Assembly (NCBI GenBank): GCA_964537195.1
Contig: CAZHYZ010000001.1
Coordinates: forward strand, 93,100 to 157,099
DNA from: an uncultured Methanosarcinales archaeon
Lineage (GTDB): Archaea; Nanobdellota; Nanobdellia; Woesearchaeales; GW2011-AR15
Direction: 5' to 3'
DNA: 64,000 bases
Shown: piece after piece, positions 15,678 through 50,465 of the stretch
How the letters are laid out: each line of letters starts with the position of its first letter
Numbering within the stretch: position 1 is the stretch's first letter
Position numbers and translations under genes: made by a program
The notes under the pieces: generated by a model
What the model saw: the letters and a program-made list of their open reading frames with translations, nothing else
What the model was told of the DNA's origin: nothing
Database searches by the model: none

Positions 15678-16156
15678 CTTAATAGAGCAGAATTACCCTT
15701 TCCTATTAATGTAACAGTTAATAATCCTTCGTTCTCTAAGCAAAGATAATCAGATTCTACATTCAAATTATCTACATAAAAAGAGTCCTCGATTATGTTG
15801 TTTTTTAATAAGAAAACATTCTTTGGGACATTATCTTTTATACTGTCTTCTATAAATAAATTATCAATATCAGCATCCAAATCAAAGACTTCTTCATCCG
15901 TCATGGAATCAACAAAACATATTGTGTCGAATCTATCGGGAAGCCGGAACTCATATTTTTCTACAGATTCATATTGTCTAGATATTTTAGACACGATTCT
16001 ATCAAAATCATCTTTTAAATTATCTAGTGGGATTTGGTTGCCTGCCTTAAGTATGGTAGAAACTGCCTTGTAGCCTACAGCAAGTATTATGACTACAATT
16101 ACAGCAGCCATTATATATACAAAAACTTGAGATGATATTTGTGCCTTTGATTTCAT
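15674..16156 (-). CDS. Type IV pilin-like protein
   Basis: MKSKAQISSQVFVYIMAAVIVVIILAVG. Confidence 0.5.
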   Translation of the reverse strand: MKSKAQISSQVFVYIMAAVIVVIILAVGYKAVSTILKAGNQIPLDNLKDDFDRIVSKISRQYESVEKYEFRLPDRFDTICFVDSMTDEEVFDLDADIDNLFIEDSIKDNVPKNVFLLKNNIIEDSFYVDNLNVESDYLCLENEGLLTVTLIGKGNSALLR

Positions 16157-28047: not shown

Positions 28048-31000
28048 ATGATGAAAAATGAAAAATTCTTGAAGTTATTTGTAATTGCAATTGTTTTTTT
28101 GTTTGTGTTTTCTTTGATGCCTAAAGATGTTAATGCAGTGAAGTATGTTAATTGTCCAGTGAGTATTGATGGTGTTTCGTGTCCTGGATGTCATGGAAAT
28201 CTAGTAAATGGAGTGTGTCCTGATCCAAGAGAATGTCCGGTAGGTACTACTTGGGGAGGTTATAAATGTAAGAGTGACGGGCTTTGGCATAAAATACCTG
28301 CCTGTACACCAAGCTGTACAGGAAAAGAATGTGGTTCTGGCGGTTGTAATACAGGTAATACATACTGCGGTGTCTGTGTAGGACCATATCTTCAAGACAC
28401 AGCATGTAGTGATGGAGAATGTATGTATCAACCAGCAGAATTAGCAGCATCTGCAACAGAGCTATGTTTAGGAGAAGATGCATCTACATACGAATTTGTC
28501 TTAACTGGAACTAATTCATATTGTGGAGATGTAACAACAATAACTGCTCCATGGCACGAACCAGGAGAGGAAATTGTGATTAATGATAACACGTATGAGC
28601 CTTATACTTTTACAGAAACATTAACCCTACCAGAAGACTATGACCTAAACAATTTAGTTATTACAATCACAAGTAATAGAGAAACAATAAAAAATAATAG
28701 GGATCAAGAATTTGATTATAATGAAGTATGTGTACAAGAAGTAAATCTTGTTGTAGAGTTTGATAATTTTTTCTACTGTCCAAAACCCGGAGAGAATCAT
28801 GCAGGATTTGACTTTTATGAAGATTCAATATATTATGACTTCTATAATGAGGGTGTTGAGAGAGATTGGGATGAATGTGTTTCAAATGATAATATTCAAA
28901 GTTGCACACCGCATGCAACAGATTGTGTTTCTATAGGGGGTTCCTCAGTAAGTATGGGTTCTGCCTTTGATGGAGATGATGATGTGAATGAATATGAAGT
29001 TTGTCATTCTGAAAACAGCATACAAGGAGGCTGGCTTGATCCCGATGTAAATTCAGAAACTTGTGAAATAGTTGATTCTACTTCACCAAGGAGAGCAGAA
29101 TGGTATGATTGCGCACCAAGCCAAGAATGTAGTAAGGGCGTAGACAGTTTTGATAATGACCTTTCAACAGGATTATGTTGTGGAGATGAGGTTGGAGAAT
29201 TTGTTACAGAGACCCTGTCTAAAATTCAAGGAGACACAGAATATGTTAAGGATAACCAAGGCCAGAATTTAGAATACAGTGCATGTTGTGATGAGTCTAT
29301 TAGTTGTGTGGATGAATCTGGTATTTGTAGGGGAATAGGAAACGAGACTTGTGTGTCTAGCGGGGGTTATAGAGCCATTTGTGTTAATAATAATGGAAGA
29401 GGAGAATGGGAATTAGTTCCAGACAACAATTGTGAAGACCTCTGTAATAATTGTGATGTCAATGATGATGGAAAAGTTGACCAAATAGATACAAACACAA
29501 TAACAAGTAATGCATGCACTGAAAATTGCGATGACACTTTTGATATTAATGATGATGGTTTAGTAGATCAATTGGATGTTGATTTATGTACTCCTTTAGT
29601 TGAGGAAGGTGCTATTTGTTTTGGTTGTGGTGATAATGAACTAGATTCAGATGAAGGATGTGATTATGAATCTGATATATTACAATTTAATTGTGTCGAT
29701 GAAGTTTGTGATGGTGCAGTTCTAAAAACACGTTTAGATACTTGTACAGGTGTTTGTTCTTGTGAATATGAAGAATCTTGTGTTATTGGAGAGTGTGGTG
29801 CTGAATGTGCAGAAAATTCAGATTGTGGTGATGGTGAGGAATGTAATGGATGTTTATGCGAAAAGATTGGTTGCCCACCTGGTACACAATTATGTGAGGA
29901 TGACACTTGTAGTGAAAATTGTACTATAACAGACGATGGACCAAAAGGTTGCATTAATGATAACGGAGAATGTGATGAAGGAGAAGGCTGCGCATGTGAA
30001 GATTGTTTGGGGGAAAGAGATAGTTGTAGTGAGGGAGCAGTATGTGGAGAAGATGAACTATGTGGTTGTCCTGTTGGGACAACAATGTGTGAAGATGGTA
30101 CATGCAGTGCTAATTGTGAACTGACAGACGAAGGTGCTGTAGGATGTTTGAATAACAATGGAGAGTGTGATTTTGGAGAAGGTTGTGATTGTATTGATTG
30201 TCATGAAGAACAAGATAGCTGTGTATATGGTGCAGTATGTAACTATTATACAGAATCATGCGAATTACCTTGTGTTGTTACAGAAGACCCAGAAGTTACA
30301 TTAGATGATGGAATTGATAATGATTGTGACGGCTTAATAGATGAACCAAAATTTGATAGTGAATATGGTGCTTATGTTTGGGAATCCAATTGTAGATATT
30401 ATTTGTGTGCAAATGCTCGCGATTCTGAGCCACACACAACAAAAGGAGAAATAGGTGTTGAAGATCCTTATTATCTTTATAGTATAAGAACAATTTTCTG
30501 GGAAACTGCAGATGATTATTCAGTACTCTCAGACAACTTAGGTGTGGATTTTACCTCTTACATTAATAACGATAAAGACTGTATTTTGTTTAAGTCAGAT
30601 ACACTAATGAGTTTTGACCTTGATATGAATGGTTCTCATAGTACAGATAATGTATTCTTAACACAAGAAAAAATAAATCCAATAGAAAATCCTTTTGCAT
30701 TTGCTTCCCCTGAATGTACTCTAAGTTGTACAGATCCAGCAGATTGTGGTAGAGATTCTTTATTATATGGTACAAATTATTGTGGGTTTGAGGAATGTAT
30801 GTTTGATTGTGGGGGATACTGGGTAAATACTTCCTCCTTATTGGGAGATGTCTTTACACCAAGCACCAATCCAGGAGATTATTGTGAAGCCTGTACAGAA
30901 GAGGTTGAATGTTCAGACTATAACAATATAGCAAGTTGTTTGTTTAATCCATGTGATACAGGAGAGTCAATATTTGGTTGTTATTGGAATGAATCATCTT

Positions 31001-32484
31001 TGACATGTGATGATATCTTTGAACCATGTAAGCCTGGTACGACTTTATGTGAGGACGGTACTTGCAGTCATGATTGTGAAGAAACAGACACAGATGAGCA
31101 AGGTTGTATAAATGATAATGGAGAATGTGATGAAGGAGAAGGCTGCGCATGTGAAGATTGTGAAGGTGAACAAGACAGTTGTACAGAAGGTGCTATTTGT
31201 GATGATGATGGTTATTGTGGTTGTCCACCGGGCACAACTTTATGTAAGGACGGTACATGTAGTGACGATTGTGATGAGACAGATGATGGAAATATGGGAT
31301 GTATAGATGAAAATGGTGTCTGTGAATTAGGAGAGGGTTGTGCATGTGAGGATTGTAATGGTTACCAAGATAGTTGTGTTGATGATGCAGTATGTAATTA
31401 TTTCTTGGAGGAATGTGTAGAGCTTGAAATAGGAAATTGTCCCGAAGGTACAACTTTGTGTGAAGACTTAACCTGTGATGAAGATTGCGAAGGTCATGGT
31501 GGCAAGGCAGGCTGTATAGGAGACCCAAATGATGACTGTGAATTAGGAGAAGGTTGTGCATGTATTGATTGTAATAATAAAAGAGATAGTTGTGATGTGG
31601 GTTTAGTGTGTAATTATGAATATGAATTATGTGAAAGTCTTCCAAGTGGCGGCGGAACACAAGCTTGTGAAGATAATGACAATGATGGTTACTATGAAAT
31701 AGATGAAGATTGCTTTGGGAGCGATGATTGTAATGATTATAACTCGGCAGTCCACCCGGGAGCTATAGAACTTTGTAATAATATTGATGATGATTGTGAT
31801 GGTGACATAGATGAAAATTGTTTTTCAGATGATGGAGAAAGTTTAGATTTATCTATAAGTAGCACAACAGGTTCTGCAAGAGTATTAGACAAATTTACAC
31901 TTGTTGCCACAGTCAAGAATAGACTTGATAGAACTGTTTCTGATGTTTTGGTCTCATTAGAGGTTCCATCTAAATTTGCAGTTAAAGGTGGCTCAGTAAA
32001 GATTGATGAGATACCCGCAAATGGAGAAAAAGAACTTTCATTTGAAGTTATTGTAAAAGATTATACTCAGGAAAGTGTAGAATTCACACTAAATGCAAAA
32101 GTCTCAAATGATAATATTATATCTGAAGATTTCAATATAGGAATTGAGGTCCCAGACTTTTTAATAGCGCCAATGCCCATGTTTGAATATCCAAACACAA
32201 GAAGAGTTTGTTTAGACTTTTATTATGTAATAAACAATCCTTCTTTAGGAATGGTGGATGTTGAGTTTGAGATAACAAATCCAAAAGCAGTATTTGGAAA
32301 AAGTGTGGTTGTAGATTATGTTTCATCAGTTGATTCAGACAACATACTTGCTAGGCCATTGCTTTCAAACCCCTATTGTATTTCAGGAGGAGAAACATAT
32401 CATGTAAATGGCTATTTATATAAGCCCGGCGCATTTATTGTGGACAAGGTTGACGAAAGTTCAGAAACATTAGTATTAGGATAA
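28048..32484 (+). CDS. Giant (1478 aa) secreted Cys-rich adhesin-like protein with at least five EGF-like ~60-aa Cys modules, MopE-like DxDCDGxIDE motifs and a C-terminal CARDB-like beta-sandwich region
   Basis: Sec signal ...PKDVNA|VKY. Repeated CPPGTxLCEDGTCSxxCExTDDGxxGCINDNGECDEGEGCACEDC modules. DDGIDNDCDGLIDE and NNIDDDCDGDIDENC. LVATVKNRLDRTVSDVLVSLEVP...NGEKELSFEV. Confidence 0.65.
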   Translation: MMKNEKFLKLFVIAIVFLFVFSLMPKDVNAVKYVNCPVSIDGVSCPGCHGNLVNGVCPDPRECPVGTTWGGYKCKSDGLWHKIPACTPSCTGKECGSGGCNTGNTYCGVCVGPYLQDTACSDGECMYQPAELAASATELCLGEDASTYEFVLTGTNSYCGDVTTITAPWHEPGEEIVINDNTYEPYTFTETLTLPEDYDLNNLVITITSNRETIKNNRDQEFDYNEVCVQEVNLVVEFDNFFYCPKPGENHAGFDFYEDSIYYDFYNEGVERDWDECVSNDNIQSCTPHATDCVSIGGSSVSMGSAFDGDDDVNEYEVCHSENSIQGGWLDPDVNSETCEIVDSTSPRRAEWYDCAPSQECSKGVDSFDNDLSTGLCCGDEVGEFVTETLSKIQGDTEYVKDNQGQNLEYSACCDESISCVDESGICRGIGNETCVSSGGYRAICVNNNGRGEWELVPDNNCEDLCNNCDVNDDGKVDQIDTNTITSNACTENCDDTFDINDDGLVDQLDVDLCTPLVEEGAICFGCGDNELDSDEGCDYESDILQFNCVDEVCDGAVLKTRLDTCTGVCSCEYEESCVIGECGAECAENSDCGDGEECNGCLCEKIGCPPGTQLCEDDTCSENCTITDDGPKGCINDNGECDEGEGCACEDCLGERDSCSEGAVCGEDELCGCPVGTTMCEDGTCSANCELTDEGAVGCLNNNGECDFGEGCDCIDCHEEQDSCVYGAVCNYYTESCELPCVVTEDPEVTLDDGIDNDCDGLIDEPKFDSEYGAYVWESNCRYYLCANARDSEPHTTKGEIGVEDPYYLYSIRTIFWETADDYSVLSDNLGVDFTSYINNDKDCILFKSDTLMSFDLDMNGSHSTDNVFLTQEKINPIENPFAFASPECTLSCTDPADCGRDSLLYGTNYCGFEECMFDCGGYWVNTSSLLGDVFTPSTNPGDYCEACTEEVECSDYNNIASCLFNPCDTGESIFGCYWNESSLTCDDIFEPCKPGTTLCEDGTCSHDCEETDTDEQGCINDNGECDEGEGCACEDCEGEQDSCTEGAICDDDGYCGCPPGTTLCKDGTCSDDCDETDDGNMGCIDENGVCELGEGCACEDCNGYQDSCVDDAVCNYFLEECVELEIGNCPEGTTLCEDLTCDEDCEGHGGKAGCIGDPNDDCELGEGCACIDCNNKRDSCDVGLVCNYEYELCESLPSGGGTQACEDNDNDGYYEIDEDCFGSDDCNDYNSAVHPGAIELCNNIDDDCDGDIDENCFSDDGESLDLSISSTTGSARVLDKFTLVATVKNRLDRTVSDVLVSLEVPSKFAVKGGSVKIDEIPANGEKELSFEVIVKDYTQESVEFTLNAKVSNDNIISEDFNIGIEVPDFLIAPMPMFEYPNTRRVCLDFYYVINNPSLGMVDVEFEITNPKAVFGKSVVVDYVSSVDSDNILARPLLSNPYCISGGETYHVNGYLYKPGAFIVDKVDESSETLVLG
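29965..30006. repeat. 42-nt perfect intragenic repeat (copy 1; copy 2 at 31120..31161) within the Cys-module gene
   Basis: ggagaatgtgatgaaggagaaggctgcgcatgtgaagattgt is identical at both sites. Confidence 0.7.
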
Positions 32485-32527: not shown

Positions 32528-33592
32528 ATGTTTGTATTCGGAATAAATCTTCCATTGCCAGAAATTTTCTTTATACTAGTTTTCATATTCTTAATATGTC
32601 TATTTTTGATATTATATCAGTTACAGAGATTACAAAAAATGACTACAGAAGAACAAGCAGAGTTGGCAGAGTTAGAGAAACTAGCGCAAGAGGAAAAAAA
32701 GGATTTAGAACAAATTAAAGCATTTGAGACAATGGAAGGTCAGGATTTGGGGAAATTTGAAAAGGACATAGCAGAACTTGAACAGGATACAGAAACACTA
32801 TATCTAAAGAACCTTGCTCCTGATTTGTATAAATTACAGAATTATGTTCTTTGGGCCTTGAAAAAGGGAATGTCACCAGACCAGATTAAAGATAATTTAT
32901 TGAACAAAGGCTGGAAGGACGATAAGTTAATGGAAATGGTCATAAAGGATACCTTGAATTATGTTGATTATTATAAGGGCAAGAAGGGTAAAGTCCAAAT
33001 ACCTCATGTCAAAGTAGAGGAAAAAACCCACATTATTCATCCTGTAAAAATTATAGAGAAAGGATCTCCCAAAGTAGAGATGGAAATTGAGGAGAAACCA
33101 AGGGAAAAGACTACAAAGAAAAAATCAACTAAGAAGAAAGCTTCCAAATCAAAGACCAAGAAAAAATCAGCAACCACAAAAAAATCCTCAAAGAAAAAAT
33201 CAAAAGATGAGTTTGCATCAGTTGAGAAAGAATTGCAAAAACTAGAAAAAGAGTTAAAAAAAGAAGAAAAGAAAACAAAGAGTTCTAAGAAGAAGTCTTC
33301 TACAAAGAAATCAAACAAGAAGAAATCTACTAAGAAAAAATCAACTAAGAAAAGTTCTAAGAAAAAAAGCAAACCGAAGACCAAGAAAAAGACAGCAAAG
33401 ACAAAGAGTTCTAAGAAGAAGTCTTCTACAAAGAAAAGTCCTAAGAAGACTACTAAAAAGAAATCTTCCAAGAAGAAATCAACTTCCAAAAAGAAGAAAA
33501 CTACTAAAAAGAAATCTTCCAAGAAATCAAAGAGCAAGGGTGTTGTTGTAGAAGCAGACAAAGACGTAGATGTTCACGTAAAATACAAATAA
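32528..33592 (+). CDS. Membrane-anchored coiled-coil protein with a long Lys/Ser/Thr-rich histone H1-like tail
   Basis: N-terminal TM, EEQAELAELEKLAQEEKKDLEQ coiled coil, then ~180 aa of KKKSTKKKS-type low complexity. Internal in-frame 35-nt perfect DNA repeat (33276..33310 and 33402..33436). Confidence 0.5.
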   Translation: MFVFGINLPLPEIFFILVFIFLICLFLILYQLQRLQKMTTEEQAELAELEKLAQEEKKDLEQIKAFETMEGQDLGKFEKDIAELEQDTETLYLKNLAPDLYKLQNYVLWALKKGMSPDQIKDNLLNKGWKDDKLMEMVIKDTLNYVDYYKGKKGKVQIPHVKVEEKTHIIHPVKIIEKGSPKVEMEIEEKPREKTTKKKSTKKKASKSKTKKKSATTKKSSKKKSKDEFASVEKELQKLEKELKKEEKKTKSSKKKSSTKKSNKKKSTKKKSTKKSSKKKSKPKTKKKTAKTKSSKKKSSTKKSPKKTTKKKSSKKKSTSKKKKTTKKKSSKKSKSKGVVVEADKDVDVHVKYK

Positions 33593-33969: not shown

Positions 33970-34174
33970 CTTTTTAATTGGATTTAAACAATGTTTATAT
34001 TTTTTCCTGGCAAAATTTTATATATAATCAGATATTAACTAAAAACATGTATAATTTACTGAAAACACTTATTGTGGTAGTGGTCAACTAGTTTTCAGTG
34101 GCTTTTTCTTCTAATGTTTTATGAAGAGTAATAGAAGAGAAAGTTTTTTATTACATAAAATAAAGGTGATTAAT

Positions 34175-36601
34175 ATGAAACTTCCAAAGAGATATGATCC
34201 AAAAGAATCAGAGAAAAAGTGGCAAGAATACTGGGAAAAGAACCAAATTTACAAGTTTGATAAAAAAGATACTAAAAGACCACTTTATGTAATAGACACA
34301 CCACCACCAACTGTTTCTGGTGATATGCACTTAGGACATGCTTTTTCATATTCTCAAAATGATTTTGTAGCAAGATATCAGAGAATGACAGGTAAGAATG
34401 TTTTTTATCCTTTTGGAACAGATGATAATGGTCTTGCAACAGAAAGATTGGTTGAAAGAAAAAACAAAATTCGTTCTGTAAATATGAAGCGCTCTGAATT
34501 CATTAAATTATGCCTTACCACTTTAGATAAGATAAGACCGGACTTTATCCAAGATTGGAAAAATATTGGAATGAGTTGTGACTTTTCATTATTCTATTCT
34601 ACTATTAATGACCATTGCCGTAGAATAAGCCAGTGGTCTTTCTTAGATTTATACAAAAGGGGTAGAGAGTACAGAAAAGAAGCACCAACTATGTGGTGTC
34701 CCGAATGCCAGACAGCAATAGCACAGGTTGAGTTAGAAGACAAAGAATTCAAGAGTACTTTTAATGACTTGATATTCAAAATAGGGGACAAAGATTTAAT
34801 TATCGCTACAACAAGACCAGAGTTATTGAGTAGTTGTGTTGCTGTTTTTGTACACCCAGATGATAAACGATATAAGAAATATGTTGGGAAGAAAGCAATC
34901 GTTCCAATATTCAATCATGAAGTTCCTATTTTAGTTGATAAAAGAGCTGATATGGAAAAAGGTACGGGGGCAGTAATGTGCTGTACTTTTGGTGACCAGA
35001 CAGACATTGAGTGGTATAAAGCACACAATCTCCCTTTAAGGATTTCTATAACAAAAGACGGAAGGATGACAAAAAAGGCAGAAAAATATGAAGGAATGTC
35101 TACAAAAGAAGCACGCAAGATGATTATTGAAGACCTGGATAAACAAGGTCTTCTTGTAAAACAAGAACCAATTAAACATACAGTAAATGTTCACGAGCGT
35201 TGTGGAATACCTGTTGAAATCCTAAATACAAAACAATGGTTTATACAATATCTAGATTTAAAAGACCTATTCTTAATAAAAGGGGCAGAGATGAACTGGT
35301 ATCCACAACATATGCGTTCTAGATTAGATAATTGGATAGAAGGATTACAATGGGATTGGTGTATCTCAAGACAGAGACATTTTGGAGTCCCATTCCCTGT
35401 GTGGTATTGTAAGAAATGTGATAAAGAGATTATTGCAAAACAAAAAGATTTACCAGTTGATCCCATGGAGGATAAGCCACCTGTAAAAAAATGTCCTGAA
35501 TGTGGCTCTACAGAATTTATTCCAGAAAAAGATGTTTTTGATACCTGGGCGACATCTTCATTAACTCCAATGTTGGCTGGAGAATTAATTAAAGGAACAC
35601 CTAATTACAAGAAGATGTATCCAATGGACTTAAGGCCACAGGCTCACGACATAATTACTTTTTGGCTCTTCAATACAATGGTTAAAAGTCAATTACACTT
35701 TGATAGAAATCCCTGGGAGGACATAATAATTTCAGGTTGGGCACTTGATCCTCACGGTAAAAAAATGTCCAAGAGCAAAGGCAATGTGATTCATCCACAA
35801 GAGATGATTAAGAAATATTCTGCAGATGCATTGAGATTCTGGGCAGCAGGCTCTAAACTTGGAGAGGATTTACCATTCCAAGAAAAAGACTTAGTTACGG
35901 GCAAGAAAACCATTACAAAATTATGGAATGCATCCAAGTTTTCACTAATGCATTTAGAAGATTACAAAGGAGAAAAGCCAGAACTTGAGGTAATGGATAA
36001 ATGGTTATTAACTAAATTGCAGAAGTTGATTTTTAGTGTTACTGAATCTTTTGAAAAATATGAATATTCAAAAGTTAAACAAGAGACAGAACAGTTTTTC
36101 TGGAATGTCTTTTGTGATAATTATCTTGAGATTGCTAAAGATAGGCTCTATAATCCTGAACAGCATAGAGAAGGTGCAAGAGAATCTGGCCAATATGCTC
36201 TTTATGAAGCCTCACTTAACATATTGAAGTTATTTGCTCCAATAATGCCTTACATAACAGAAGAAATCTACCAGTTATATCATGCAGAAAAAGAGAAATT
36301 ACTTAGCATACATGTATCTCAATGGCCACAGTTTAATGAAAAATTAGTATATAATGATGCAGAGAAAACAGGAGATTATGCTGTAGATATAATCTCTGCC
36401 GTTAGAAAGTTCAAATCTGAAAAAAATCTCTCCTTGAAAACAGAGCTTAAGATGTTGACAATTGAATGTTCTAAAAGGGTTAGAGAATTGCTTGAATTAA
36501 TATTGGGAGATTTATCTGCAACAACAAAAGCTAAAGATATTGAATTTGGAAAAGCAGATTTACAAATAAATGATAAAATAAAATTATCTATTGAATTATA
36601 A
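34175..36601 (+). CDS. valS: Valyl-tRNA synthetase (class I aaRS). Start preferred at MKLPKRYDPKE after the RBS aaaggtga; the ORF track starts at 34121.
   Basis: PPPTVSGDMHLGHA (HIGH) and KMSKSKGN (KMSKS). Editing-domain-sized insertion. Confidence 0.8.
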   Translation: MKLPKRYDPKESEKKWQEYWEKNQIYKFDKKDTKRPLYVIDTPPPTVSGDMHLGHAFSYSQNDFVARYQRMTGKNVFYPFGTDDNGLATERLVERKNKIRSVNMKRSEFIKLCLTTLDKIRPDFIQDWKNIGMSCDFSLFYSTINDHCRRISQWSFLDLYKRGREYRKEAPTMWCPECQTAIAQVELEDKEFKSTFNDLIFKIGDKDLIIATTRPELLSSCVAVFVHPDDKRYKKYVGKKAIVPIFNHEVPILVDKRADMEKGTGAVMCCTFGDQTDIEWYKAHNLPLRISITKDGRMTKKAEKYEGMSTKEARKMIIEDLDKQGLLVKQEPIKHTVNVHERCGIPVEILNTKQWFIQYLDLKDLFLIKGAEMNWYPQHMRSRLDNWIEGLQWDWCISRQRHFGVPFPVWYCKKCDKEIIAKQKDLPVDPMEDKPPVKKCPECGSTEFIPEKDVFDTWATSSLTPMLAGELIKGTPNYKKMYPMDLRPQAHDIITFWLFNTMVKSQLHFDRNPWEDIIISGWALDPHGKKMSKSKGNVIHPQEMIKKYSADALRFWAAGSKLGEDLPFQEKDLVTGKKTITKLWNASKFSLMHLEDYKGEKPELEVMDKWLLTKLQKLIFSVTESFEKYEYSKVKQETEQFFWNVFCDNYLEIAKDRLYNPEQHREGARESGQYALYEASLNILKLFAPIMPYITEEIYQLYHAEKEKLLSIHVSQWPQFNEKLVYNDAEKTGDYAVDIISAVRKFKSEKNLSLKTELKMLTIECSKRVRELLELILGDLSATTKAKDIEFGKADLQINDKIKLSIEL

Positions 36602-39600
36602 TCTTTTCAGAACTCCATCAATATATTCCTCATTAATGCCTTGCCCTTTTAGTAATGTCTTAATCTCCTCAGGATCATCTGTTTTGTATTTTTCTTTTAC
36701 TTCTTTTATCTTGCTTTTTATTATCTCATCCATCTTGTCCTCTTTTACAAATTCGAATTTTGTCTTTATCAAGACAACACCAAGAATTATTGCAATTAAG
36801 ATAAGAGATGGAATAGCAATATTAACTGGGGAATATTCTCCTTCTTTGAAATTAGATGAGTAAACAAAATCTTCTAGTTTATCTAAGCAGCCTTTGTCAA
36901 CAGTTCCTTCAACATCATATGTTATCTCTAGGTCTTCTTCAACATTGGCAAATCTCCAAGCAATAACTGGGTCATCTTCAATAACATTGTAGTTTTTCCC
37001 ATTAAAATATATGTTCTGAGATTGTTGAGCAAGACATTTTGGTACATTCTGATAGTAGACAAAATCTTCAACAGGATCCTCAACCTTCATAGAAAGTCTA
37101 TATCTTGTGAATTTCTTATCTTCTTTCATAAATACCATCTTCTCAAATTTTAAAGAGTTTTTCATCCTTTCAGAATTACTTTCTAATGTATTTCTCATTT
37201 CGGGGGAAACATTTAGGAATGAAGATTCCATAAGGTTGTTTAACTTTAATTGTTGTGTTCTTATAACTTGGTGGAAGGTCTCACTTACTATATTTATTTC
37301 AGAACAATCCTCTTGATTCGGGTTGTATTTGTTTGGACAGTTATCTATATTTCCGCAAATACTGTCTTCATCAATATCATTATTAGCATCTTCTGGACAC
37401 AAATCACATACGTTGCCTATTTTATCTTCATCAGAATCTTCTTGATTCGGATTGAAAACAGTAGGACAGTTGTCTATGTTGCCACAGATACCATCATCAT
37501 CAAAATCATTTAAAGGATCTGAAGGACATATATCACACTCATCTCCAATACCGTCATTGTCTGTGTCATTTTGTTTTGGATTATATATTTCTGGGCAATT
37601 GTCAACTATATCTTGGAAACCATCTCCATCAGAATCAGTTGAGCATGAAGAGTCAAAGTCGCAAGCATCTCCTATGCCATTGTTATCACAATCAATTTGG
37701 CTAGGATTGAATTTGTTTGGACAATTATCAAAATTACCGCAAATTAAGTCGTTATCAATATCATTCTCAGGGTCGTTTATACACTTATCGCACGTATCTC
37801 CTTTTCCGTCTTTGTCTGAGTCAAATTGGTTTTGGTTCTTAAGGGTGGGACAATTATCTATGTTGCCACAGATACCATCATCATCTATATCATTTAATGG
37901 ATCCAATGGGCAAATATCACAAGCATCTCCAATTCCATCTCCGTCTTTATCGAGTTGGTAGGGATTATCTATCTCAGCACAATTATCTTCTACATTAATA
38001 AATTCATCATAATCAATTTCTGTACTGCAATCAGAATCTAAGTCACAGGCATCTCCAGTGTTGTCATTATCGCAATCTATCTGGTTGAGATTAAATCTTG
38101 TTGGGCAGTTATCTATATTTCCGCAGATACCATCTTTATCAAGGTCATTATAAGGATCATCTCTACAAATGTCGCACACATCTCCAATCCCGTCAGAATC
38201 TATGTCTTTTTGATTGGTATTTCTTGTTAAGGGACAGTTGTCTACGTCCCCACAAATACCATCTCTGTCTTCATCATTAAAAGGATCTTGTGGACACCCA
38301 TCACAGGCATCTCCAATGTTGTCATTATCACAATCCTTTTGTTTTGGATTATATATTTCTGGGCAATTGTCAACTATATCTTGGAAACCATCTCCATCAG
38401 AATCAGTTGAGCATGAAGAGTCAAAGTCGCAAGCATCTCCAATGTTGTCATTATCACAATCTGTCTGGCTTGGATTATATCTTCCCGGACAATTATCTAT
38501 GTTGCCGCAATAATTGTCTGAGTCAATATCATTTAGTTCATCCTTTGGGCATTGGTCGCATATATTTCCCAGGCCATCATCATCTGAATCTACTTGAGTT
38601 GGATTATATTGATAAGGACAATTATCTATGTCTCCACCAACCCCATCATTATCAACATCATTAAATGGATCATTAGGAAAATCATCGCAGACATCTCCTA
38701 ATTTGTCTCCATCACTATCTCTCTGATTTTTATTTGATTTGCTTGGGCAGTTGTCTATGTTATCTGCTATACCGTCTCCATCAGAATCAGTTGAGCATGA
38801 AGAGTCAAAGTCGCAAGCATCTCCAATGTTATCATTATCACAATCTTTTTGTTGTGGGTTTGGTTTGTCTGGGCAATTATCTATGTTACCACACACACCA
38901 TCAAAATCCTTATCATTAAATTCATCTTCTGGGCAATCATCACACACATCTCCAATTCCATCTCCGTCTGAGTCTTCTTGGTCTTCGTTTGGATAATAAG
39001 GACAGTTATCTTCATCTGCACACTTACCATCTCCATCTATATCATTGTCCACATCATATGGACACTCATCGCAAGCATCTCCAGCTCCCGCACCATCAGA
39101 ATCTTTTTGTTGTGGGTTTGGAGTGTAGACACAATTATCTATTTCATCACACCATCCGTCATCATCATAATCATTATCTAAAATACAACTACCTTCTCCA
39201 CCACATTTAATAACACCCGGACAAGAGTTCATATTACACGGAATCTCTAAAGTGTAATCTCCTTCATCTTCTTCATTCTCATCTATTAAGGAATCACAGT
39301 CATCATCTAAACCATTACATACTTCTGTTTTTGGACCTATGCTGTTTCTGCAAGTAGACCATTCACCATTTACACATGTCTGAGTTCCTTGTTTACATTC
39401 TCCTGTTGATATGCCACATGGATTTGTCTCTCCATTATCACAGTTACCACAACCTTCATCTGTGCTTCCATCACAATCATTGTCTAGATTGTCGCCGCAT
39501 ATTTCATTTATGGGTTTAATTTCTCCAACACATTCTTTATTTGTAAAATCCCATTCACCATTTTCACAAGTTGCTGTTTGAGTTCCTTTTTTACATTCTC

Positions 39601-40501
39601 CAACATCAGAACCACATTTTCTCTTATTGGAACCCACACATATTTCTTCTTCTTCTTCACTAGCCAAAACACAATTGCTTGTATCTCTTTTGCAGCTACT
39701 GGTGCATATTAAGTTTCCACTTGAATAAATGCTGTTAAAATTTTTACAAGTTCCGTCATATATTCCAAAATCTTTTGTATCACATTCTTCTCCAAAATTT
39801 TTTATAGTGTTTCCACACTCATCTGGTATTTGTTCACCTTCACTAGGATCTGTTTCCTCTTCAGTTGGTACACATTTATTTTCAACAGGATCACATTCAT
39901 AACCCTCGCCACAAACACAACCATCTCCACAATCATTTGGTGGACAGGTTTCCTGTTCAGGTTCATCTTGATAGCATGTGTTTGTCTCTAAATCACATTT
40001 TAAATCATCGCTCGGACAAGGATTATCTTTGTCACAAGAAAATATTGAAAAAAGTGGCTTTGCCCCTCCAGTCCCACTAGGGACACATTGATTGCTCTGA
40101 ACATCACAAACCAAGCCTTCTCCACAATCCTTTTTTTCTGGCCTACAAATCGCGTTTTCAGTACAAAGACCATACTTACAACCCTCTCCACACCCAATTT
40201 GTCCGCATTGTTGTGCATCAGTCACTGGAATCTGAGTTAAAGGTGGTCTTTCTTCATCTCCCTCATCACTCTCTTCACAAAAATCCAAATAACAGCAATC
40301 AGGGTGAGAAAGTTTCTCTTCTCCACCACTTACAACAATACAATCTCCTGAGCTTTCTATTCTGTAGTATAAGTAATTTTCATTATAATCATTACATTGA
40401 TTGAACATTTTAAGGGTGGTACAGATTACTGGATCTGCAATCACAAACGTACTCAATGCCATAAACAACAGAAACAATATCACAACCTTTTTTTTATTCA
40501 T
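36596..40501 (-). CDS. Giant (1301 aa) secreted protein with ~20 thrombospondin type-3 calcium-binding repeats, N-terminal Cys-rich/MopE-like modules, a C-terminal TM anchor and a short cytoplasmic tail
   Basis: Sec signal MNKKKVVILFLLFMALSTFVIA|DP. Repeated DxDxDGxGDxCDxCPxDxxNDxDxDGxCGNIDNCPxxxNPxQxDCDNDNIGDACD units. TM IAIPSLILIAIILGVVLI. Converges on valS. Confidence 0.7.
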   Translation of the reverse strand: MNKKKVVILFLLFMALSTFVIADPVICTTLKMFNQCNDYNENYLYYRIESSGDCIVVSGGEEKLSHPDCCYLDFCEESDEGDEERPPLTQIPVTDAQQCGQIGCGEGCKYGLCTENAICRPEKKDCGEGLVCDVQSNQCVPSGTGGAKPLFSIFSCDKDNPCPSDDLKCDLETNTCYQDEPEQETCPPNDCGDGCVCGEGYECDPVENKCVPTEEETDPSEGEQIPDECGNTIKNFGEECDTKDFGIYDGTCKNFNSIYSSGNLICTSSCKRDTSNCVLASEEEEEICVGSNKRKCGSDVGECKKGTQTATCENGEWDFTNKECVGEIKPINEICGDNLDNDCDGSTDEGCGNCDNGETNPCGISTGECKQGTQTCVNGEWSTCRNSIGPKTEVCNGLDDDCDSLIDENEEDEGDYTLEIPCNMNSCPGVIKCGGEGSCILDNDYDDDGWCDEIDNCVYTPNPQQKDSDGAGAGDACDECPYDVDNDIDGDGKCADEDNCPYYPNEDQEDSDGDGIGDVCDDCPEDEFNDKDFDGVCGNIDNCPDKPNPQQKDCDNDNIGDACDFDSSCSTDSDGDGIADNIDNCPSKSNKNQRDSDGDKLGDVCDDFPNDPFNDVDNDGVGGDIDNCPYQYNPTQVDSDDDGLGNICDQCPKDELNDIDSDNYCGNIDNCPGRYNPSQTDCDNDNIGDACDFDSSCSTDSDGDGFQDIVDNCPEIYNPKQKDCDNDNIGDACDGCPQDPFNDEDRDGICGDVDNCPLTRNTNQKDIDSDGIGDVCDICRDDPYNDLDKDGICGNIDNCPTRFNLNQIDCDNDNTGDACDLDSDCSTEIDYDEFINVEDNCAEIDNPYQLDKDGDGIGDACDICPLDPLNDIDDDGICGNIDNCPTLKNQNQFDSDKDGKGDTCDKCINDPENDIDNDLICGNFDNCPNKFNPSQIDCDNNGIGDACDFDSSCSTDSDGDGFQDIVDNCPEIYNPKQNDTDNDGIGDECDICPSDPLNDFDDDGICGNIDNCPTVFNPNQEDSDEDKIGNVCDLCPEDANNDIDEDSICGNIDNCPNKYNPNQEDCSEINIVSETFHQVIRTQQLKLNNLMESSFLNVSPEMRNTLESNSERMKNSLKFEKMVFMKEDKKFTRYRLSMKVEDPVEDFVYYQNVPKCLAQQSQNIYFNGKNYNVIEDDPVIAWRFANVEEDLEITYDVEGTVDKGCLDKLEDFVYSSNFKEGEYSPVNIAIPSLILIAIILGVVLIKTKFEFVKEDKMDEIIKSKIKEVKEKYKTDDPEEIKTLLKGQGINEEYIDGVLKRL
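37573..37672. repeat. 100-nt perfect intragenic direct repeat (copy 1; copy 2 at 38341..38440; partial third copy at ~38777..38830) inside the TSP3-repeat gene
   Basis: gttttggattatatatttctgggcaattgtcaactatatcttggaaaccatctccatcagaatcagttgagcatgaagagtcaaagtcgcaagcatctcc is identical at both sites. Confidence 0.8.
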
Positions 40502-40582: not shown

Positions 40583-42436
40583 ATGAGAAAGTCACAGTCA
40601 TCACTCTTTATAGTAATAGGACTTACCGTTCTTATTCTTTCTTCTATATTTATGGTAAAATCAACTCAAAAAAACCAAGTTGATTTAGAAAGTCAAAACT
40701 ATGAAGTTCGTTCAAACTTAATGATGAAGAAGGACATCAATGAGAATATTAACTTCTGTGTTGAAATTTCTGTTGAAACCTCAATTGAAGAGACAGGTAT
40801 AAGAGAGGAGACATTAAATGATTACAAAAAATTGGTTGCTTCTGAAATTAAAGAATGTATAACTCCTTTCTTTATTGACTTGGAGAAAAGATATTATGAT
40901 GTTGAAGAAGGAGATGTTGTTGTAGATGCCGGATTAAATTCAGAAAGCATTGTTGTAAATGTCATATATCCAATTACTATAGAAAACGGAAAAGAAATTG
41001 CACAATTTGATGAATTTCATTATACTTTTGACAGATCTAGTAAAGTAAGTATACCTGGCGGAATAACTGATAAGGAAACAAGAGTTGTCTCCCCAGATGA
41101 TAGAGCAGAACTTAGGATTCCTGAAGGAGTAGAGATTAGGGATGAAGAAGGTAATCTGGTTGATGAGGTTGGAATAAAAGTTGAAGATTTGCATTTTGAT
41201 GGTCTGGAAAACAAAGTTTTGATAGGTGAGCTTGTTTATGAGTTCTTTCCAGACGTTACTTTTTCAGAACCAGTTGAATTAGAAATTGAATTCAATCTTG
41301 AAGACATTCCAGAAGGTTATACAACAGAGAATTTGAAATTAGCATATTGGGACGAAGAAGACAGTATCTGGTATGCTCTACCTACAGAGATTAGAGATGA
41401 TAGAGCAATAGTAAATTCAACCCATCTTTCAAGATGGAGCCTTGGAATTGGAAGACCCATCTTGATTAATAAAAAAATCTTCAGGGAGAGATTTTCTCCT
41501 ACGGGTGGAAGTCCAAATAAAGGAGAAAAAGTTTGGTTAATTGGAGGCAGTGTTGGTGACCCTAAAGGAACAGTAAGGTTACAGATAAATTATGATCTTG
41601 AAAAATTGAAAGCCCACAAACAGTTTGGAGATTGGAGAGAAATAAAAAATGCAGAAAGGATTAATTTTACTTGGTTCCCTAAAACAGACTATGGTTATTA
41701 TGAGGATCCAAATGATTTTGATTCATTTGTTAACTGTGAAGAACCTGGAGAGAATTATGGTGTAGAATACCTGATGAAAGCAGGATATCCTTATTTTGTT
41801 GAAGAATACTATGATGATGAAACAAATACTACTAAAGAAAGAGACATCCTTGGTTGGCATAATCTACAGTGCAATGGCGGCAGAGTATTGCCAGAAGAAG
41901 GAAAACCAGTTTCTGATTTCTTGATATTCCAATCAAAAGGCAACTCAATACTTGGCCTTTCACACAGGGAAGATCCATTAATGAAGACTTTTGTCTATCC
42001 TATTGAAGGTTCAGTAAATAAATATTATTTATTAGATCCAGATAATGAAGATCCAAAATATACCTTCTATTGTGAATTTATTGAGTTTCCTGATGGAGGC
42101 ACAGTTAAAGAAATTACTCTTAATCCTGAGGATTTGGCAGGTTCTCCACTTCTAGAAGGCGGCTTAGATATAAACTCTAGCTATTTAACTTTCGGAGTAT
42201 ATGGAGTAAAAGCATTCAAAGATACAAATCATCCAATATCAAGATATGATACACATGCTCAATGTGAACTCTTTTGGTATTATTGGGGAAGTGGAGCAGA
42301 ATATACAAACGTTCCTGTTAAAGAGACTTTCAAAGGGTTAAAAATACCTTATGAAATTTGGATAGAACCTTTCACTGAGGATGCTTTATCCCTTTTAATT
42401 AAAGCAAAAAACACCATTACAGGATTTTTTGATTAA
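40583..42436 (+). CDS. Large (617 aa) class III-signal surface protein, paralog of 42487..44406
   Basis: MRKSQSSLFIVIGLTVLILSSIFMV. Shared blocks with the next gene (NINFC, HYTFDRS, IPGGITD, SPDDRAE, GWHNLQCNGGRVLP, AQCEL). Confidence 0.55.
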   Translation: MRKSQSSLFIVIGLTVLILSSIFMVKSTQKNQVDLESQNYEVRSNLMMKKDINENINFCVEISVETSIEETGIREETLNDYKKLVASEIKECITPFFIDLEKRYYDVEEGDVVVDAGLNSESIVVNVIYPITIENGKEIAQFDEFHYTFDRSSKVSIPGGITDKETRVVSPDDRAELRIPEGVEIRDEEGNLVDEVGIKVEDLHFDGLENKVLIGELVYEFFPDVTFSEPVELEIEFNLEDIPEGYTTENLKLAYWDEEDSIWYALPTEIRDDRAIVNSTHLSRWSLGIGRPILINKKIFRERFSPTGGSPNKGEKVWLIGGSVGDPKGTVRLQINYDLEKLKAHKQFGDWREIKNAERINFTWFPKTDYGYYEDPNDFDSFVNCEEPGENYGVEYLMKAGYPYFVEEYYDDETNTTKERDILGWHNLQCNGGRVLPEEGKPVSDFLIFQSKGNSILGLSHREDPLMKTFVYPIEGSVNKYYLLDPDNEDPKYTFYCEFIEFPDGGTVKEITLNPEDLAGSPLLEGGLDINSSYLTFGVYGVKAFKDTNHPISRYDTHAQCELFWYYWGSGAEYTNVPVKETFKGLKIPYEIWIEPFTEDALSLLIKAKNTITGFFD

Positions 42437-42486: not shown

Positions 42487-44406
42487 ATGAAAAAAGCGCA
42501 GTCATCACTATTTGTATTAATAGGTCTTGCCGTTTTAATTTTAGTTTCTATATTCTTTGTTAGTTTATCTGGAAGAAAACAAGTTAATTTTGAAGCAAAA
42601 AATTATGATGGCCTTACAGAATTAAGAATGAGGGAAGATATTAGTGAAAACATCAACTTTTGTATAGAAAACTCAGTAAGAACAACAATGCAGGATACAG
42701 GAATTAGACAAGAAACACTTGTAGAATATGAAAGTCTAACTACTACCAGAATAGATAATTGTGTCAGTCCTTTAATTGAAGAATTAGAAAGGCAGGAATA
42801 TGATGTTGATGAAGGCAATATTATTGTTGACATAAATCTAAATCCTGAAGCAATTGTTGTTGAAGTTGATTATCCTACAAAGATAGAAAAAGGTGACAGG
42901 CTAATTCAGTTTACTGATTTTCACTATACTTTTGACAGATCTGCCACAGTGAAAATTCCGGGTGGGATAACTGATGATGAAATAATTGTTGTTTCTCCTG
43001 ATGACAGAGCAGAAATAGTAATTCCTCCAGGAGTTGAGATTAGAGACCAAGAAGGTAATTTGGTTGATGAAATTGGATTGAAAGTTGATGATTTACATTT
43101 TGGTGGTTTAGAAAATAAACATGTTGTTGGACAATTAGTATATGAAGGTTATCCAGATGTTACTTTCTCCAAACCCGTTCAACTTTCTTTGGATTTTAGA
43201 GAAGAAGATATTGGTGATATTCCAGAAGAAGAAAGCATAGCAGTTTCTTATTGGGACGAAGATAATCAGGTATGGTATGCTTTTCCAACAGAGATACATG
43301 ATGGAGTTGCTACAGCCAATGTTACACACCTAAGTTTTTGGACAATTAATAGGTGGCTTCCAAGATATTTTATTACTGAAGAATTCAATACTAGATTCAC
43401 TCCCACAGGTGGAAGTCCTACCGAAGGTGAAAAAATTTGGTTAATAGGTGGTAGAGAATACTCTAAAGAAGGAACAGTCTCTTTTCAGATTAATTGGGAC
43501 TTTGAAAGATTGAGGGCCAGAGAGGATTATGAAGATTGGAAAGAAACTCTTGAAGAAATAAAAGACGATTATATTTCCTTTCCAGTAACAGAATTTGGAT
43601 ATTATATTAATCCAGAGAATCCCAATTCAGAATTTATAAATTGTGAAGAGTCCCAGGAAATGTATGGAGTGGAATATCTAATGAAAGACGGATATCCTTA
43701 TTACAAAGTCTGTAATCCTGGAGTTGAAAATGCTGTTCGTTGTGAAGGTTGTGGAGATTATGAGTATTCCTTAAATTATTTGGAATGCAACCCTATTTGT
43801 AATGGTACTATGATGGGGGATTCTCCAGGTCAACCAGGTAAAATTTGTGTTCCAATATCTTCAGGTTCAAAAAGATGTAAAATTAGAGATGAATGTATAG
43901 AAAGAGAAGGTTGGCATAACCTGCAATGCAACGGGGGGCGTGTTTTGCCAGGAGATGAAGATGCTGCATCCTTCTTTACTTGTGAAGGAAACGGAAATTG
44001 TGTTATATATCACTTAGTTGTTCAGGAATACCCTAATGGACCAAATGAGTTTACTTATGCTGATTTCAAATCAGTACTTGGACAAGGTTTTGATACTTCC
44101 CCTTTTGCTTTCTATTGTGATATAAAACCCTTTCCAGGCGAAGAGGGCAAAACTTTTCAAGATTATTTAGGAACACAGCACAGCAATTTTGAACTTTCAG
44201 ATGGTTCAGCAGCATGGGGAGTTTATGGTGTTGATATTTTTAAAAGAGTTGACCATGATAATGCTAGAATATCAACAAATGCACAATGTGAACTTATTTG
44301 GGAAATCAAGGGTAAGGGAGATATTACTTTCAATAATCCGAATGCTGTAAGCGGACAGGAGTTTATCAAGAAAAAGATAGAAGAAAGAAGAAATTCTAAT
44401 AATTAA
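42487..44406 (+). CDS. Large (639 aa) class III-signal surface protein, tandem paralog with an extra Cys-rich insert
   Basis: MKKAQSSLFVLIGLAVLILVSIFFV. Co-linear with 40583..42436. Confidence 0.55.
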   Translation: MKKAQSSLFVLIGLAVLILVSIFFVSLSGRKQVNFEAKNYDGLTELRMREDISENINFCIENSVRTTMQDTGIRQETLVEYESLTTTRIDNCVSPLIEELERQEYDVDEGNIIVDINLNPEAIVVEVDYPTKIEKGDRLIQFTDFHYTFDRSATVKIPGGITDDEIIVVSPDDRAEIVIPPGVEIRDQEGNLVDEIGLKVDDLHFGGLENKHVVGQLVYEGYPDVTFSKPVQLSLDFREEDIGDIPEEESIAVSYWDEDNQVWYAFPTEIHDGVATANVTHLSFWTINRWLPRYFITEEFNTRFTPTGGSPTEGEKIWLIGGREYSKEGTVSFQINWDFERLRAREDYEDWKETLEEIKDDYISFPVTEFGYYINPENPNSEFINCEESQEMYGVEYLMKDGYPYYKVCNPGVENAVRCEGCGDYEYSLNYLECNPICNGTMMGDSPGQPGKICVPISSGSKRCKIRDECIEREGWHNLQCNGGRVLPGDEDAASFFTCEGNGNCVIYHLVVQEYPNGPNEFTYADFKSVLGQGFDTSPFAFYCDIKPFPGEEGKTFQDYLGTQHSNFELSDGSAAWGVYGVDIFKRVDHDNARISTNAQCELIWEIKGKGDITFNNPNAVSGQEFIKKKIEERRNSNN

Positions 44407-49757: not shown

Positions 49758-50465
49758 ATGGGAGATCCAAAATTACTAAGAAAGAAGTATTCAACGCCAA
49801 CACACCCTTGGCAAAAAGCACGAATTGAAGAAGAAAGGGGACTTACTAGAGAATATGGCTTTAAAAATAAGAAGGAATTATGGAAACTAAATTCTAAATT
49901 AAGGGCTTTTAAGTCGCAAGTTAAAGATATAGTTCCTAAGACTGATGAAATTGCACACGAACAAAAGCAGATGTTGTTGAAGAAATTACAGGGTCTTGGT
50001 TTAATTGATGAAAAAGCAATTTTAGAAGATATTTTGGCCTTGACATTAAAAGATTTGTGTGAAAGAAGACTACAGACAATTGTATTCAAAAAAGGCTTAG
50101 CTAGATCAATAAAACAGGCCAGACAATTGATTGTGCATGAGCATGTTGTTGTTGGAGAGAGAAAGATTACTTCACCATCATATATTCTAGATATAGCAGA
50201 AGAATCATTAGTTAATATTTCCAAAGATTCACCAATGATTTCTGAGGACCACCCAGAAAGAGTTCCTTTGGGCCTGGAAATAAAAAAGGAGATGGAAGAA
50301 ATAGGTTTAAAGAAGAAAGAACCAGAAGAGAAGAAAAAGGAAGAATTAAAAAAAGAACCAAAGGAAAAAGAAGAGATAGAAGAAAGACAAGAACCACAAG
50401 AAGAAGAGAAGAAAGAAGACCCTGAAGAAAAAGATTCAAATAAAGATGAGGAGACAGAAGAATGA
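49758..50465 (+). CDS. rps4: 30S ribosomal protein S4 (uS4) with a ~50-aa Lys/Glu-rich C-terminal extension
   Basis: [43 protein letters not shown]. Tail [41 protein letters not shown]. Confidence 0.85.

Follow-up and report, generated by a model that had tools for sequence, protein, structure and literature searches.

A perfect direct repeat of 104 nt within a thrombospondin type 3 (TSP3) gene of an uncultured Woesearchaeota-like archaeon is probably, at a probability of about 80%, the footprint of recent short-tract gene conversion inside that gene, with the number of units in its tandem array held constant at 15. The two copies, both read from a single metagenomic assembly, lie in the window, which is the whole 64-kb stretch of DNA analysed here (64,000 nt, 33% GC). 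The sequences of the units suggest that the exchange was a homologous recombination running from the junction of units 6 and 7 to the junction of units 12 and 13.

Results

The TSP3 gene and its neighbours

The gene, its parts and the genes beside it are as follows.

36596..40501, minus strand: gene for a 1301-aa membrane-anchored TSP3-repeat protein, putatively of the cell surface (ORF; Pfam TSP_3, E = 1.3e-57)
40436..40501, minus strand: putative signal peptide, aa 1-22, MNKKKVVILFLLFMALSTFVIA (recognised by reading the sequence)
39170..40435, minus strand: Cys-rich N-terminal ectodomain, aa 23-444, with two MopE-like motifs (sequence)
37304..39169, minus strand: TSP3 array, 14 full units plus a half unit, aa 445-1066 (repeat families D1-D3, unit-HMM matches)
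36827..37303, minus strand: C-terminal, predicted extracellular, beta-rich domain, aa 1067-1225 (alignment, AlphaFold2 model)
36599..36826, minus strand: transmembrane helix (aa 1226-1245, 36767-36826) and conserved cytoplasmic tail (36599-36766) (sequence, alignment)
34121..36601, plus strand: valyl-tRNA synthetase, in convergent orientation to the TSP3 gene (NCBIfam valine--tRNA ligase, E = 0)
40583..42436, plus strand: pilin-like neighbour, 617 aa, N-terminus MRKSQSSLFIVIGL, divergent from the TSP3 gene
42487..44406, plus strand: 639-aa paralog of this pilin-like protein, 43% identity (sequence comparison)

The repeats had been placed inside a TSP3 gene by the original prediction, which left the strand unstated, and the Pfam match bears this out with 191.6 bits, spread over 12 stretches, against a gathering cut-off of 25. 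Each unit carries conserved cysteines and the Asp-rich calcium-site motifs D-x-D-x-D-G and DNC-P...N-x-x-Q-x-D-x-D-x-D-G-x-G-D-x-C-D, and Asp makes up 25% of the array. A surface location and a calcium-binding role are predicted for the protein, and a disulfide is predicted between Cys36 of one unit and Cys7 of the next. In the N-terminal ectodomain the MopE-like motifs, of the form C-x-G-x-D-x-D-C-D, lie at 39449-39502 and 39278-39322 and are visible as ICGDNLDNDCDGSTDEGC and VCNGLDDDCDSLIDE; hmmscan did not report the profile PF11617 in the TSP3 protein at E <= 0.01, and hundreds of distant PF11617 proteins match the Cys-rich region. The C-terminal domain has the alignment signature YYQN[IV]PKC...IYFNGKNY...DP.IAW.F...TYD.EG. 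and is modelled by AlphaFold2 mostly as strands (pLDDT 65). The anchor module that follows it also terminates 484 representative proteins. An identical NCBI protein (100%, P0001) occurs on one contig only, of 222,708 bp. Two antisense ORFs on the plus strand (37452-37961 and 38290-38664) are regarded as by-products of the repetitive coding strand.

The TSP3 gene and the pilin-like gene form a conserved pair. A homolog stands upstream of the TSP3 gene in the relatives L001-L006, L008, L010, L014 and L016, and the 617-aa protein of the window matches no Pfam or NCBIfam family. On the other side, the arrangement of valyl-tRNA synthetase and TSP3 gene, used as a synteny anchor for TSP3 orthology, is kept in L001-L004, L006, L008, L012 and L014. 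The nearest matches are 76% identical for the synthetase and about 59% identical for the TSP3 protein.

Position and extent of the identical tracts

The following copies were located by sequence comparison.

38337..38440, minus strand: copy A of the 104-nt tract, across the boundary of units 6 and 7 (tail GDACDFDSSCSTD, then head SDGDGFQDIVDNCPEIYNPKQ); probable donor
37569..37672, minus strand: copy B of the 104-nt tract, tail of unit 12 and head of unit 13; probable acceptor
38775..38830, minus strand: partial copy at the junction of units 3 and 4, 56 nt identical to 38391-38446
38307..38335, minus strand: patch of 29 nt within unit 7 that matches unit 6 exactly at 38433-38461, offset 126 nt

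Copies A and B are offset by 768 nt, or 256 codons, and both begin in codon phase 0. The identity first described, of 100 nt between 37573-37672 and 38341-38440, is exact and in frame, and actually extends to 104 nt. The partial third copy, first described at about 38777-38830, lies at 38775-38830; 50 nt of it are also identical to 37623-37672, and 15 further matches follow beyond one mismatch. These three tract copies are the longest exact repeats in the window, the next longest being one of 42 nt in another gene. Through the 29-nt patch the A-type unit 7 gains one more Cys as part of a C-type 'KDCDNDNIGDACD' segment. Many shorter near-identical copies had also been proposed. What stands of this is the periodic array itself, whose 14 full units and half unit are 60-77% identical to the reference copy; the 38-mer given as an example occurs once exactly (37464-37501) and once with 2 mismatches (37848-37885).

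Chance does not explain the 104-nt identity. With the protein sequence held fixed and codons weighted by their usage in this gene, synonymous identity at all 34 tract codons has P = 1.5e-11; outside the tract, codons match at 63% of the sites where the amino acids agree. In 200 reshuffles of the gene's synonymous codons, the longest exact repeat was typically short (median 21 nt) and never exceeded 42 nt, whereas the real gene has one of 104 nt. Gene conversion should leave synonymous identity in excess of what protein and codon usage provide, and this excess is seen. It should also leave edges that are sharp against diverged flanks and an acceptor unlike its positional orthologs. Directly outside the tract the identity falls to 63-70% on both sides, and units 12 and 13 of the window find their best matches in units 3 and 7 of L001 and L004. 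Units 6 and 7, by contrast, have kept units 6 and 7 of these two relatives as their best matches. Gene conversion, one of the two sources that the original prediction had offered for the perfect identity, is supported by the synonymous sites, by the edges and by the loss of positional orthology in units 12 and 13.

The direction of transfer is read from the same comparison. In relatives the junction of units 12 and 13 differs in appearance and has a C-[VI]-x-D tail. For the first half of the tract, the summed scores against the junctions of the relatives are 671 for 3/4, 656 for 6/7 and 329 for 12/13; for the second half the call of donor and acceptor is weak, with score sums of 816 vs 736. 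Duplication of a block of six units in recent time was considered and rejected, since the intervening units 7-11 retain their positional orthologs and the identity breaks off where the tract ends. GTDB genomes and JGI metagenomes were scanned with the C-terminal domain for close relatives, and only homologs of 37-47% identity were returned. No close relative was found by which the event could be dated or polarised.

Unit number across the family

The array has a period of 43/43/42 aa (129/129/126 nt), which yields a super-repeat of 128 aa, or 384 nt, with three unit types and 3+4+5 cysteines. Complete arrays were compared in 15 distinct family members, distant homologs with a mutual identity of at most about 60%. 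Every one of them has 15 units, no more and no fewer, which are contiguous and share the (43,43,42)x4+43,43 phase. Units are recognisable by position: 149 of 280 best matches across genomes fall on the same unit index, where about 20 are expected. Pairs of same-type units are 53-86% identical in DNA, and only units 7 and 13 exceed 80%, owing to the tract; outside the tracts the range is 53-78%. About half of the relatives have conversion tracts of their own, for instance of 46 nt in L001, 56 nt in L002, 35 nt in L008, and 101 and 72 nt in L014. These tracts are independent and significant, and they occur at other lattice positions and in other assemblies. The best explanation treats the array as an ancient structure of exactly 15 position-specific units.

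Discussion

Variable length as an alternative

Identical repeats could also mark a recombination hotspot, so that alleles in the population would differ in unit number as do the stalks of the Periscope type. Unequal recombination could plausibly act on perfect in-frame repeats of 104 nt that are 768 nt apart, and six units would then be lost. For Periscope Proteins, it has been proposed that variation in length stems from high DNA identity between the repeats (PMC8201768). Moreover, the contigs of L009, L012 and L013 end within the gene, and the family is a hard one for assemblies. Nevertheless, we consider such variation unlikely. The repeat-number hotspot foreseen by the original prediction is not supported by the 15 complete arrays, which all keep the count and the phase, including members whose own tracts measure 46-101 nt. 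These are distant homologs, and their constant count would be compatible with rare or transient length variants inside a population, such as an in-frame deletion of 768 nt between the two copies. The three unit types, the set cysteine pattern and the positional orthology between genomes speak against it as well, as does the divergence of same-type units outside the tracts. Homologs do differ in protein length, from 1170 to 2117 aa, and the difference sits only in the Cys-rich N-terminal part, where the region before unit 1 spans 357-1240 aa among complete homologs.

Assembly and nucleic-acid elements as alternatives

The assembler, or the polishing, might have overwritten or mis-threaded one copy of the tract. 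The source is a metagenome-assembled contig, the exact protein is known from a single contig, and a 104-nt repeat exceeds many assembly k-mers. We regard such an artefact as very improbable. De Bruijn mis-threading joins wrong flanks and so yields a deletion or duplication; it creates no identity between diverged paralogous segments. The array of the window stands at the canonical 15 units and in the canonical phase, which argues against a collapsed or expanded assembly. Reads of 150 nt would map uniquely by virtue of flanks that are 63-70% identical, and similar tracts are present in at least four other assemblies, from different samples.

Diversity-generating retroelements occur in DPANN archaea, and the tract length falls within the range of their template and variable repeats. 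Yet it is scarcely credible that the identity is kept as such a repeat pair or by selection on an RNA structure, an internal promoter or a binding site: the RNA of the tract is no more stably folded than its shuffled versions (z = 0.25), Rfam finds one tRNA only in the window, promoter-like sites are not enriched, the tract is not conserved in relatives, whose own tracts lie at other array positions, and the copies, both coding and in one ORF, are perfectly identical with none of the adenine-specific differences of a retroelement, while a non-exhaustive look at the window saw no reverse transcriptase accompanied by a template repeat that fits the tract.

Proposed course of conversion

Gene conversion at constant unit number may have proceeded as follows. 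The junction of units 6 and 7 would have been copied over the junction of units 12 and 13 of the same gene by non-reciprocal homologous recombination. Lesser events of the same kind may have connected units 3/4 to 6/7, as well as unit 6 to unit 7. Conversion would thus homogenise patches from time to time and leave the unit count unchanged, and variants with a gain or loss of units would be either seldom produced or purged by selection. Selection on length might arise because the array acts as a folded element of fixed length and not as an adjustable stalk.

Implications

Gene conversion among repeats is a well-known mechanism, and the case described here shows an ordinary mechanism at work in proteins of Woesearchaeota-like (DPANN-type) archaea whose family has been little described. 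It illustrates that a surface-protein gene with perfect DNA repeats need not encode a protein of variable length. Patches are shuffled by conversion and the count stays at 15 across deep divergence; the array is therefore a structural element whose length is set. For genome curation, the count of 15 units offers a simple check on the correct assembly of such genes. The TSP3 protein, its pilin-like neighbour and the widespread C-terminal anchor together are a candidate module for the cell surface or for attachment.

A wider proposal, which we hold only tentatively and think somewhat doubtful, is that the proteins form an undescribed and widely conserved family of these Woesearchaeota-like archaea, in which the 15-unit array would be a calcium-stiffened 'ruler' of fixed length, always paired with a divergent pilin-like gene and fastened by an anchor common to hundreds of ectodomain proteins. 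If so, recurrent conversion at a constant unit number would imply very strong selection on length and almost exclusively non-crossover resolution, and the pair of TSP3 and pilin-like proteins could belong to the host-attachment apparatus of these episymbionts.

Comparison with known systems

A literature search found no paper that joins 'thrombospondin type 3' with DPANN terms and nothing specific on TSP3 in DPANN archaea. The closest structural counterpart is the type-3 'wire' of eukaryotic thrombospondins and COMP (PF02412; PDB 3fby, 1yo8, 1ux6), which has the same DxDxDGxxDxxDNCPxxxNxxQxDxDxDGxGDxCD motifs and regular cysteine spacing. Sequence matches were obtained to the type-3 repeats of COMP (E = 2e-31) and of thrombospondin-1 and -2. 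Thrombospondins have a repeat number that is fixed across the family, and the archaeal family is likewise fixed, at 15 units. It differs in its archaeal host, in the arrangement of the 15 units as a 43/43/42-aa super-repeat of three types, and in the C-terminal transmembrane anchor. TSP_C (PF05735) is absent; Pfam finds TSP_3 only, and the PDB sequence matches are confined to the repeats. A TSP_C-like globe was also considered for the C-terminal domain and set aside, since Foldseek against the PDB, run with a weak model (pLDDT 65), returned nothing at E <= 0.001, with TM-scores of about 0.2.

Among prokaryotic TSP3-repeat surface proteins, NCBIfam gives matches at the level of the repeats to NF047638 (E = 7e-86) and NF045500 (E = 6.5e-94). 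These concern MtsC (a cell-cell cohesion MYXO-CTERM protein) and Omp28-related proteins, while the link to MopE-related proteins is the Cys-rich MopE-type motif PF11617, present in many distant matches; all of these are secreted or surface proteins. Neither NCBIfam name was adopted. The MtsC score of 288.8 lies below the cut-off of 350, the score for the Omp28-related (selenoprotein) family is the sum of 13 repeat stretches, and both matches come from the repeats alone. Architecture, anchor and taxon differ as well.

Periscope Proteins are bacterial surface stalks of variable length (PMC8201768). The TSP3 protein resembles them as a probable surface protein with a long tandem-repeat region and a stretch of perfect DNA identity between repeats. 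However, in Periscope arrays high identity runs from end to end and strains differ in the number of repeats, whereas the high identity here does not extend across the entire array, same-type units differing outside the tracts to the degree given above, and the number is invariant among the 15 homologs. The features agree instead with concerted evolution by ectopic or intragenic gene conversion, in which a tract identical at all sites likewise appears in diverged paralogs and the acceptor lacks positional identity. No essential difference from concerted evolution in general is seen, the setting being a TSP3 array of fixed length in an uncultured Woesearchaeota-like archaeon.

Exact repeats in the TSP3 gene

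The segment 37573–37672 is identical to 38341–38440 by exact sequence comparison, as the original prediction had noted, and this repeat is genuine and far from random. The full extent of the identity is 104 nt, with 37569–37672 repeating 38337–38440 at an offset of 768 nt. A third copy at 38775–38830 shares 56 nt exactly with 38391–38446 and 50 nt with 37623–37672. No exact repeat in the 64-kb window (33% GC) is longer than these three, and no inverted 22-mers were found in it. The next longest is a 42-nt direct repeat in a different gene, at 29965 and 31120 (offset 1155 nt, or 385 codons) of a 1478-aa ORF (28048–32484, +). This ORF has no match in Pfam or NCBIfam and may encode another large repeat-bearing protein. 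Two other ORFs carry Lys/Glu-rich low-complexity tandem repeats with periods of 15–36 nt (TRF; 33227–33525 and 50309–50419).

All copies lie in one minus-strand ORF (36596–40501) of 1301 aa, and a protein identical to its product is present in NCBI. Pfam detects only TSP_3 (PF02412; E = 1.3e-57, 12 stretches), and PDB sequence matches are confined to the type-3 repeats of COMP and of thrombospondin-1 and -2. The features, from the N-terminus, are:

Protein start (-): signal-peptide-like N-terminus
After the signal-peptide-like N-terminus (-): Cys-rich region, ~420 aa, with two MopE-like motifs
37304–39169 (-), aa 445–1066: TSP3 array, 14 full units and one half unit
38528–38785 (-): units 4 and 5 of the array
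C-terminal to the array (-): beta-rich domain, ~160 aa
Protein C-terminus (-): transmembrane helix, then conserved charged tail

This layout points to a surface protein with a type-I membrane anchor and a long array that is Asp-rich, disulfide-linked and, from what is known of the TSP3 family, presumably calcium-binding. The units keep a strict rhythm of 43/43/42 aa, forming a 128-aa (384-nt) super-repeat, and the three unit types have 3, 4 and 5 cysteines. The beta-rich domain, transmembrane anchor and tail make up a C-terminal module (235 aa; 36599–37303, -), whose cytoplasmic tail bears the conserved signature …EEIK.LL..QG..EEYI…K[KR]L. The same module is found at the C-terminus of 484 representative proteins, 222 of them at E <= 1e-10, mostly with other ectodomains, and these archaea may commonly use it to anchor surface proteins. 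A predicted model of the beta-rich domain (pLDDT 65) has no recognisable fold match in PDB. The family is poorly described, yet it is assembled from known parts. The window also encodes a second TSP3-motif protein, an 876-aa ORF (16153–18783, -) with the bacterial-type TSP3 repeat PF18884 (E = 4.8e-10).

Relatives and gene neighbourhood

The nearest homologs are 53–58% identical and come from Woesearchaeota, Nanoarchaeota and unclassified archaeal metagenome-assembled genomes. Gene order is kept in these relatives, with valyl-tRNA synthetase (ValRS) convergent downstream and a divergent gene of ~530–700 aa upstream. ValRS identity is highest (76%) with L002, one of the relatives' loci carrying TSP3-family homologs (L001–L016). 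A PEP carboxylase of the PEPcase_2 family (PF14010) and AspRS are present both in the window and on the L002 contig. The source organism is treated as Woesearchaeota-like (DPANN-type), as judged from relatives and not from marker-gene phylogeny. The divergent upstream neighbour is a pilin-like gene with a homolog in every family locus checked, and in the window it is followed by a paralog 43% identical to it:

40583–42436 (+): pilin-like gene, 617 aa
42487–44406 (+): pilin-like paralog, 639 aa

Both start with M[RK]K[SA]QSSLF[IV][VL]IGL, which resembles the class-III (type IV pilin-like) signal peptides of archaea, and neither has a Pfam or NCBIfam match.

Some genomes carry two TSP3-family paralogs (L005/L008 in isolate SI047_bin43; L009/L004 in isolate SRP319275_co4_76), one type with a long N-terminal part adjoining ValRS and the other with a short N-terminal part located elsewhere. 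The window gene is closest to the short type (59% to L005), yet adjoins ValRS. Three relatives' contigs start inside the gene: L009 (1–1439, from about unit 9), and L012 and L013, both cut in the N-terminal part. These starts are consistent with assemblies breaking in the repeats, in which case exact tracts that exceed the assembly k-mer would be under-represented.

Origin of the identity

A small doubt attaches to the possibility that the 104-nt identity is an assembly artefact. An assembler may misjoin the flanks of repeats, yet it does not turn diverged paralogous segments identical. The canonical unit count and phase show that nothing is collapsed or duplicated in this assembly, and similar tracts occur in independent assemblies. 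Alternatively, a functional nucleic-acid element could keep the tract identical. This is unlikely: tract RNA folds no better than its shuffles (z = 0.25), an Rfam search of the window returned only a tRNA, promoter-like sites are not enriched, and the tract is not conserved in relatives.

Both copies read the tract in one frame, as 34 whole codons (GDACDFDSSCSTDSDGDGFQDIVDNCPEIYNPKQ). With the amino acids identical and codons drawn at the gene's own usage, all 34 would match with a probability of 1.5e-11; over all pairs of same-type units in the array, only 63% of codons agree where the amino acid is the same. In 200 redraws of synonymous codons with the protein held constant, the longest exact repeat never exceeded 42 nt (median 21 nt), whereas 104 nt is observed. 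Directly outside the tract, identity drops to 63–70% on both sides. Protein-level constraint is therefore ruled out by the codon identity and the reshuffles, and recent duplication of a larger block by the sharp flanks. The copies show no differences at all and each is a coding part of the one gene, which excludes a diversity-generating retroelement pair.

The original prediction had read the repeats as recent gene conversion or slipped recombination, and gene conversion, an ordinary mechanism among repeats, holds in view of the synonymous identity, the sharp tract edges and the behaviour of units 12 and 13. Between genomes, the best unit match falls at the same unit index in 149 of 280 comparisons (~20 expected by chance) and is of the same unit type in 265 of 280. 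Window units 6 and 7 best match units 6 and 7 of L001 and L004, whereas units 12 and 13 best match units 3 and 7. Among the relatives' junctions, the tract's first half (…CDFDSSCSTD) fits 3/4 and 6/7 (summed scores 671 and 656) but not 12/13 (329), where their tails are of the C-[VI]-x-D type and often a residue shorter. The simplest reading is that the 6/7 junction was copied non-reciprocally over the 12/13 junction.

Further conversion events are indicated by the 56 nt that junctions 3/4 and 6/7 share exactly (72 nt with one mismatch), and by a 29-nt patch (38307–38335, identical to 38433–38461) through which unit 7 (38273–38401, -; KDCDNDNIGDACD) has acquired a segment of unit 6 and an additional cysteine, at a position where relatives have D-S-D. 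Because the patch adds this cysteine, units 1–14 have an odd number, 55, against 56 in L001; the patch seems more a mutational accident than an adaptation. Conversion is also seen outside the window genome. Exact intragenic repeats beyond all reshuffles (0/200) occur in L001 (46 nt), L002 (56 nt), L008 (35 nt) and L014 (101 nt); those of L003, L004 and L012 are marginal against 200 reshuffles, and the same test found none in L005, L006, L010 and L016.

Unit number

Matches to a unit HMM were counted in all family members whose array is complete (n = 15: the window protein, L001–L006, L008, L010, L012, L014, L016 and the database proteins P0005, P0121 and P0123), which are at most ~60% identical pairwise. 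Each array consists of exactly 15 units without a break, spaced (43,43,42)x4+43,43, save indels of 1–12 aa. L013 gave 14 contiguous units in the same phase, and the first is taken to have been missed by detection. Protein length varies from 1170 to 2117 aa, and the difference is located before unit 1 (N-terminal part 357–1240 aa).

Recombination between the two 104-nt copies would delete six units in frame, and such a product was seen in no TSP3-family member examined. The 15 homologs do not bear out the proposed hotspot for repeat-number variation. Rare, short-lived deletion alleles could exist within a population, compatibly with their fixed count. Tract-bearing relatives keep 15 units (for instance L014, with tracts of 101 nt between units 1/2 and 13/14 and 72 nt between units 4 and 5), so patches are exchanged repeatedly at a fixed unit number. 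In the window protein and in L004, Cys36 is missing from unit 4 (DDFPNDP and DPFPNDP, respectively) and Cys7 from unit 5 (GVGGD). That the two are lost as a pair suggests that a disulfide joins neighbouring units, which would help explain why the lattice does not easily gain or lose units.

Periscope proteins show high DNA identity throughout the array, and their repeat number varies between strains (PMC8201768). The TSP3 family described here differs in its fixed 15 units, which contradicts the expectation of a variable-length stalk.
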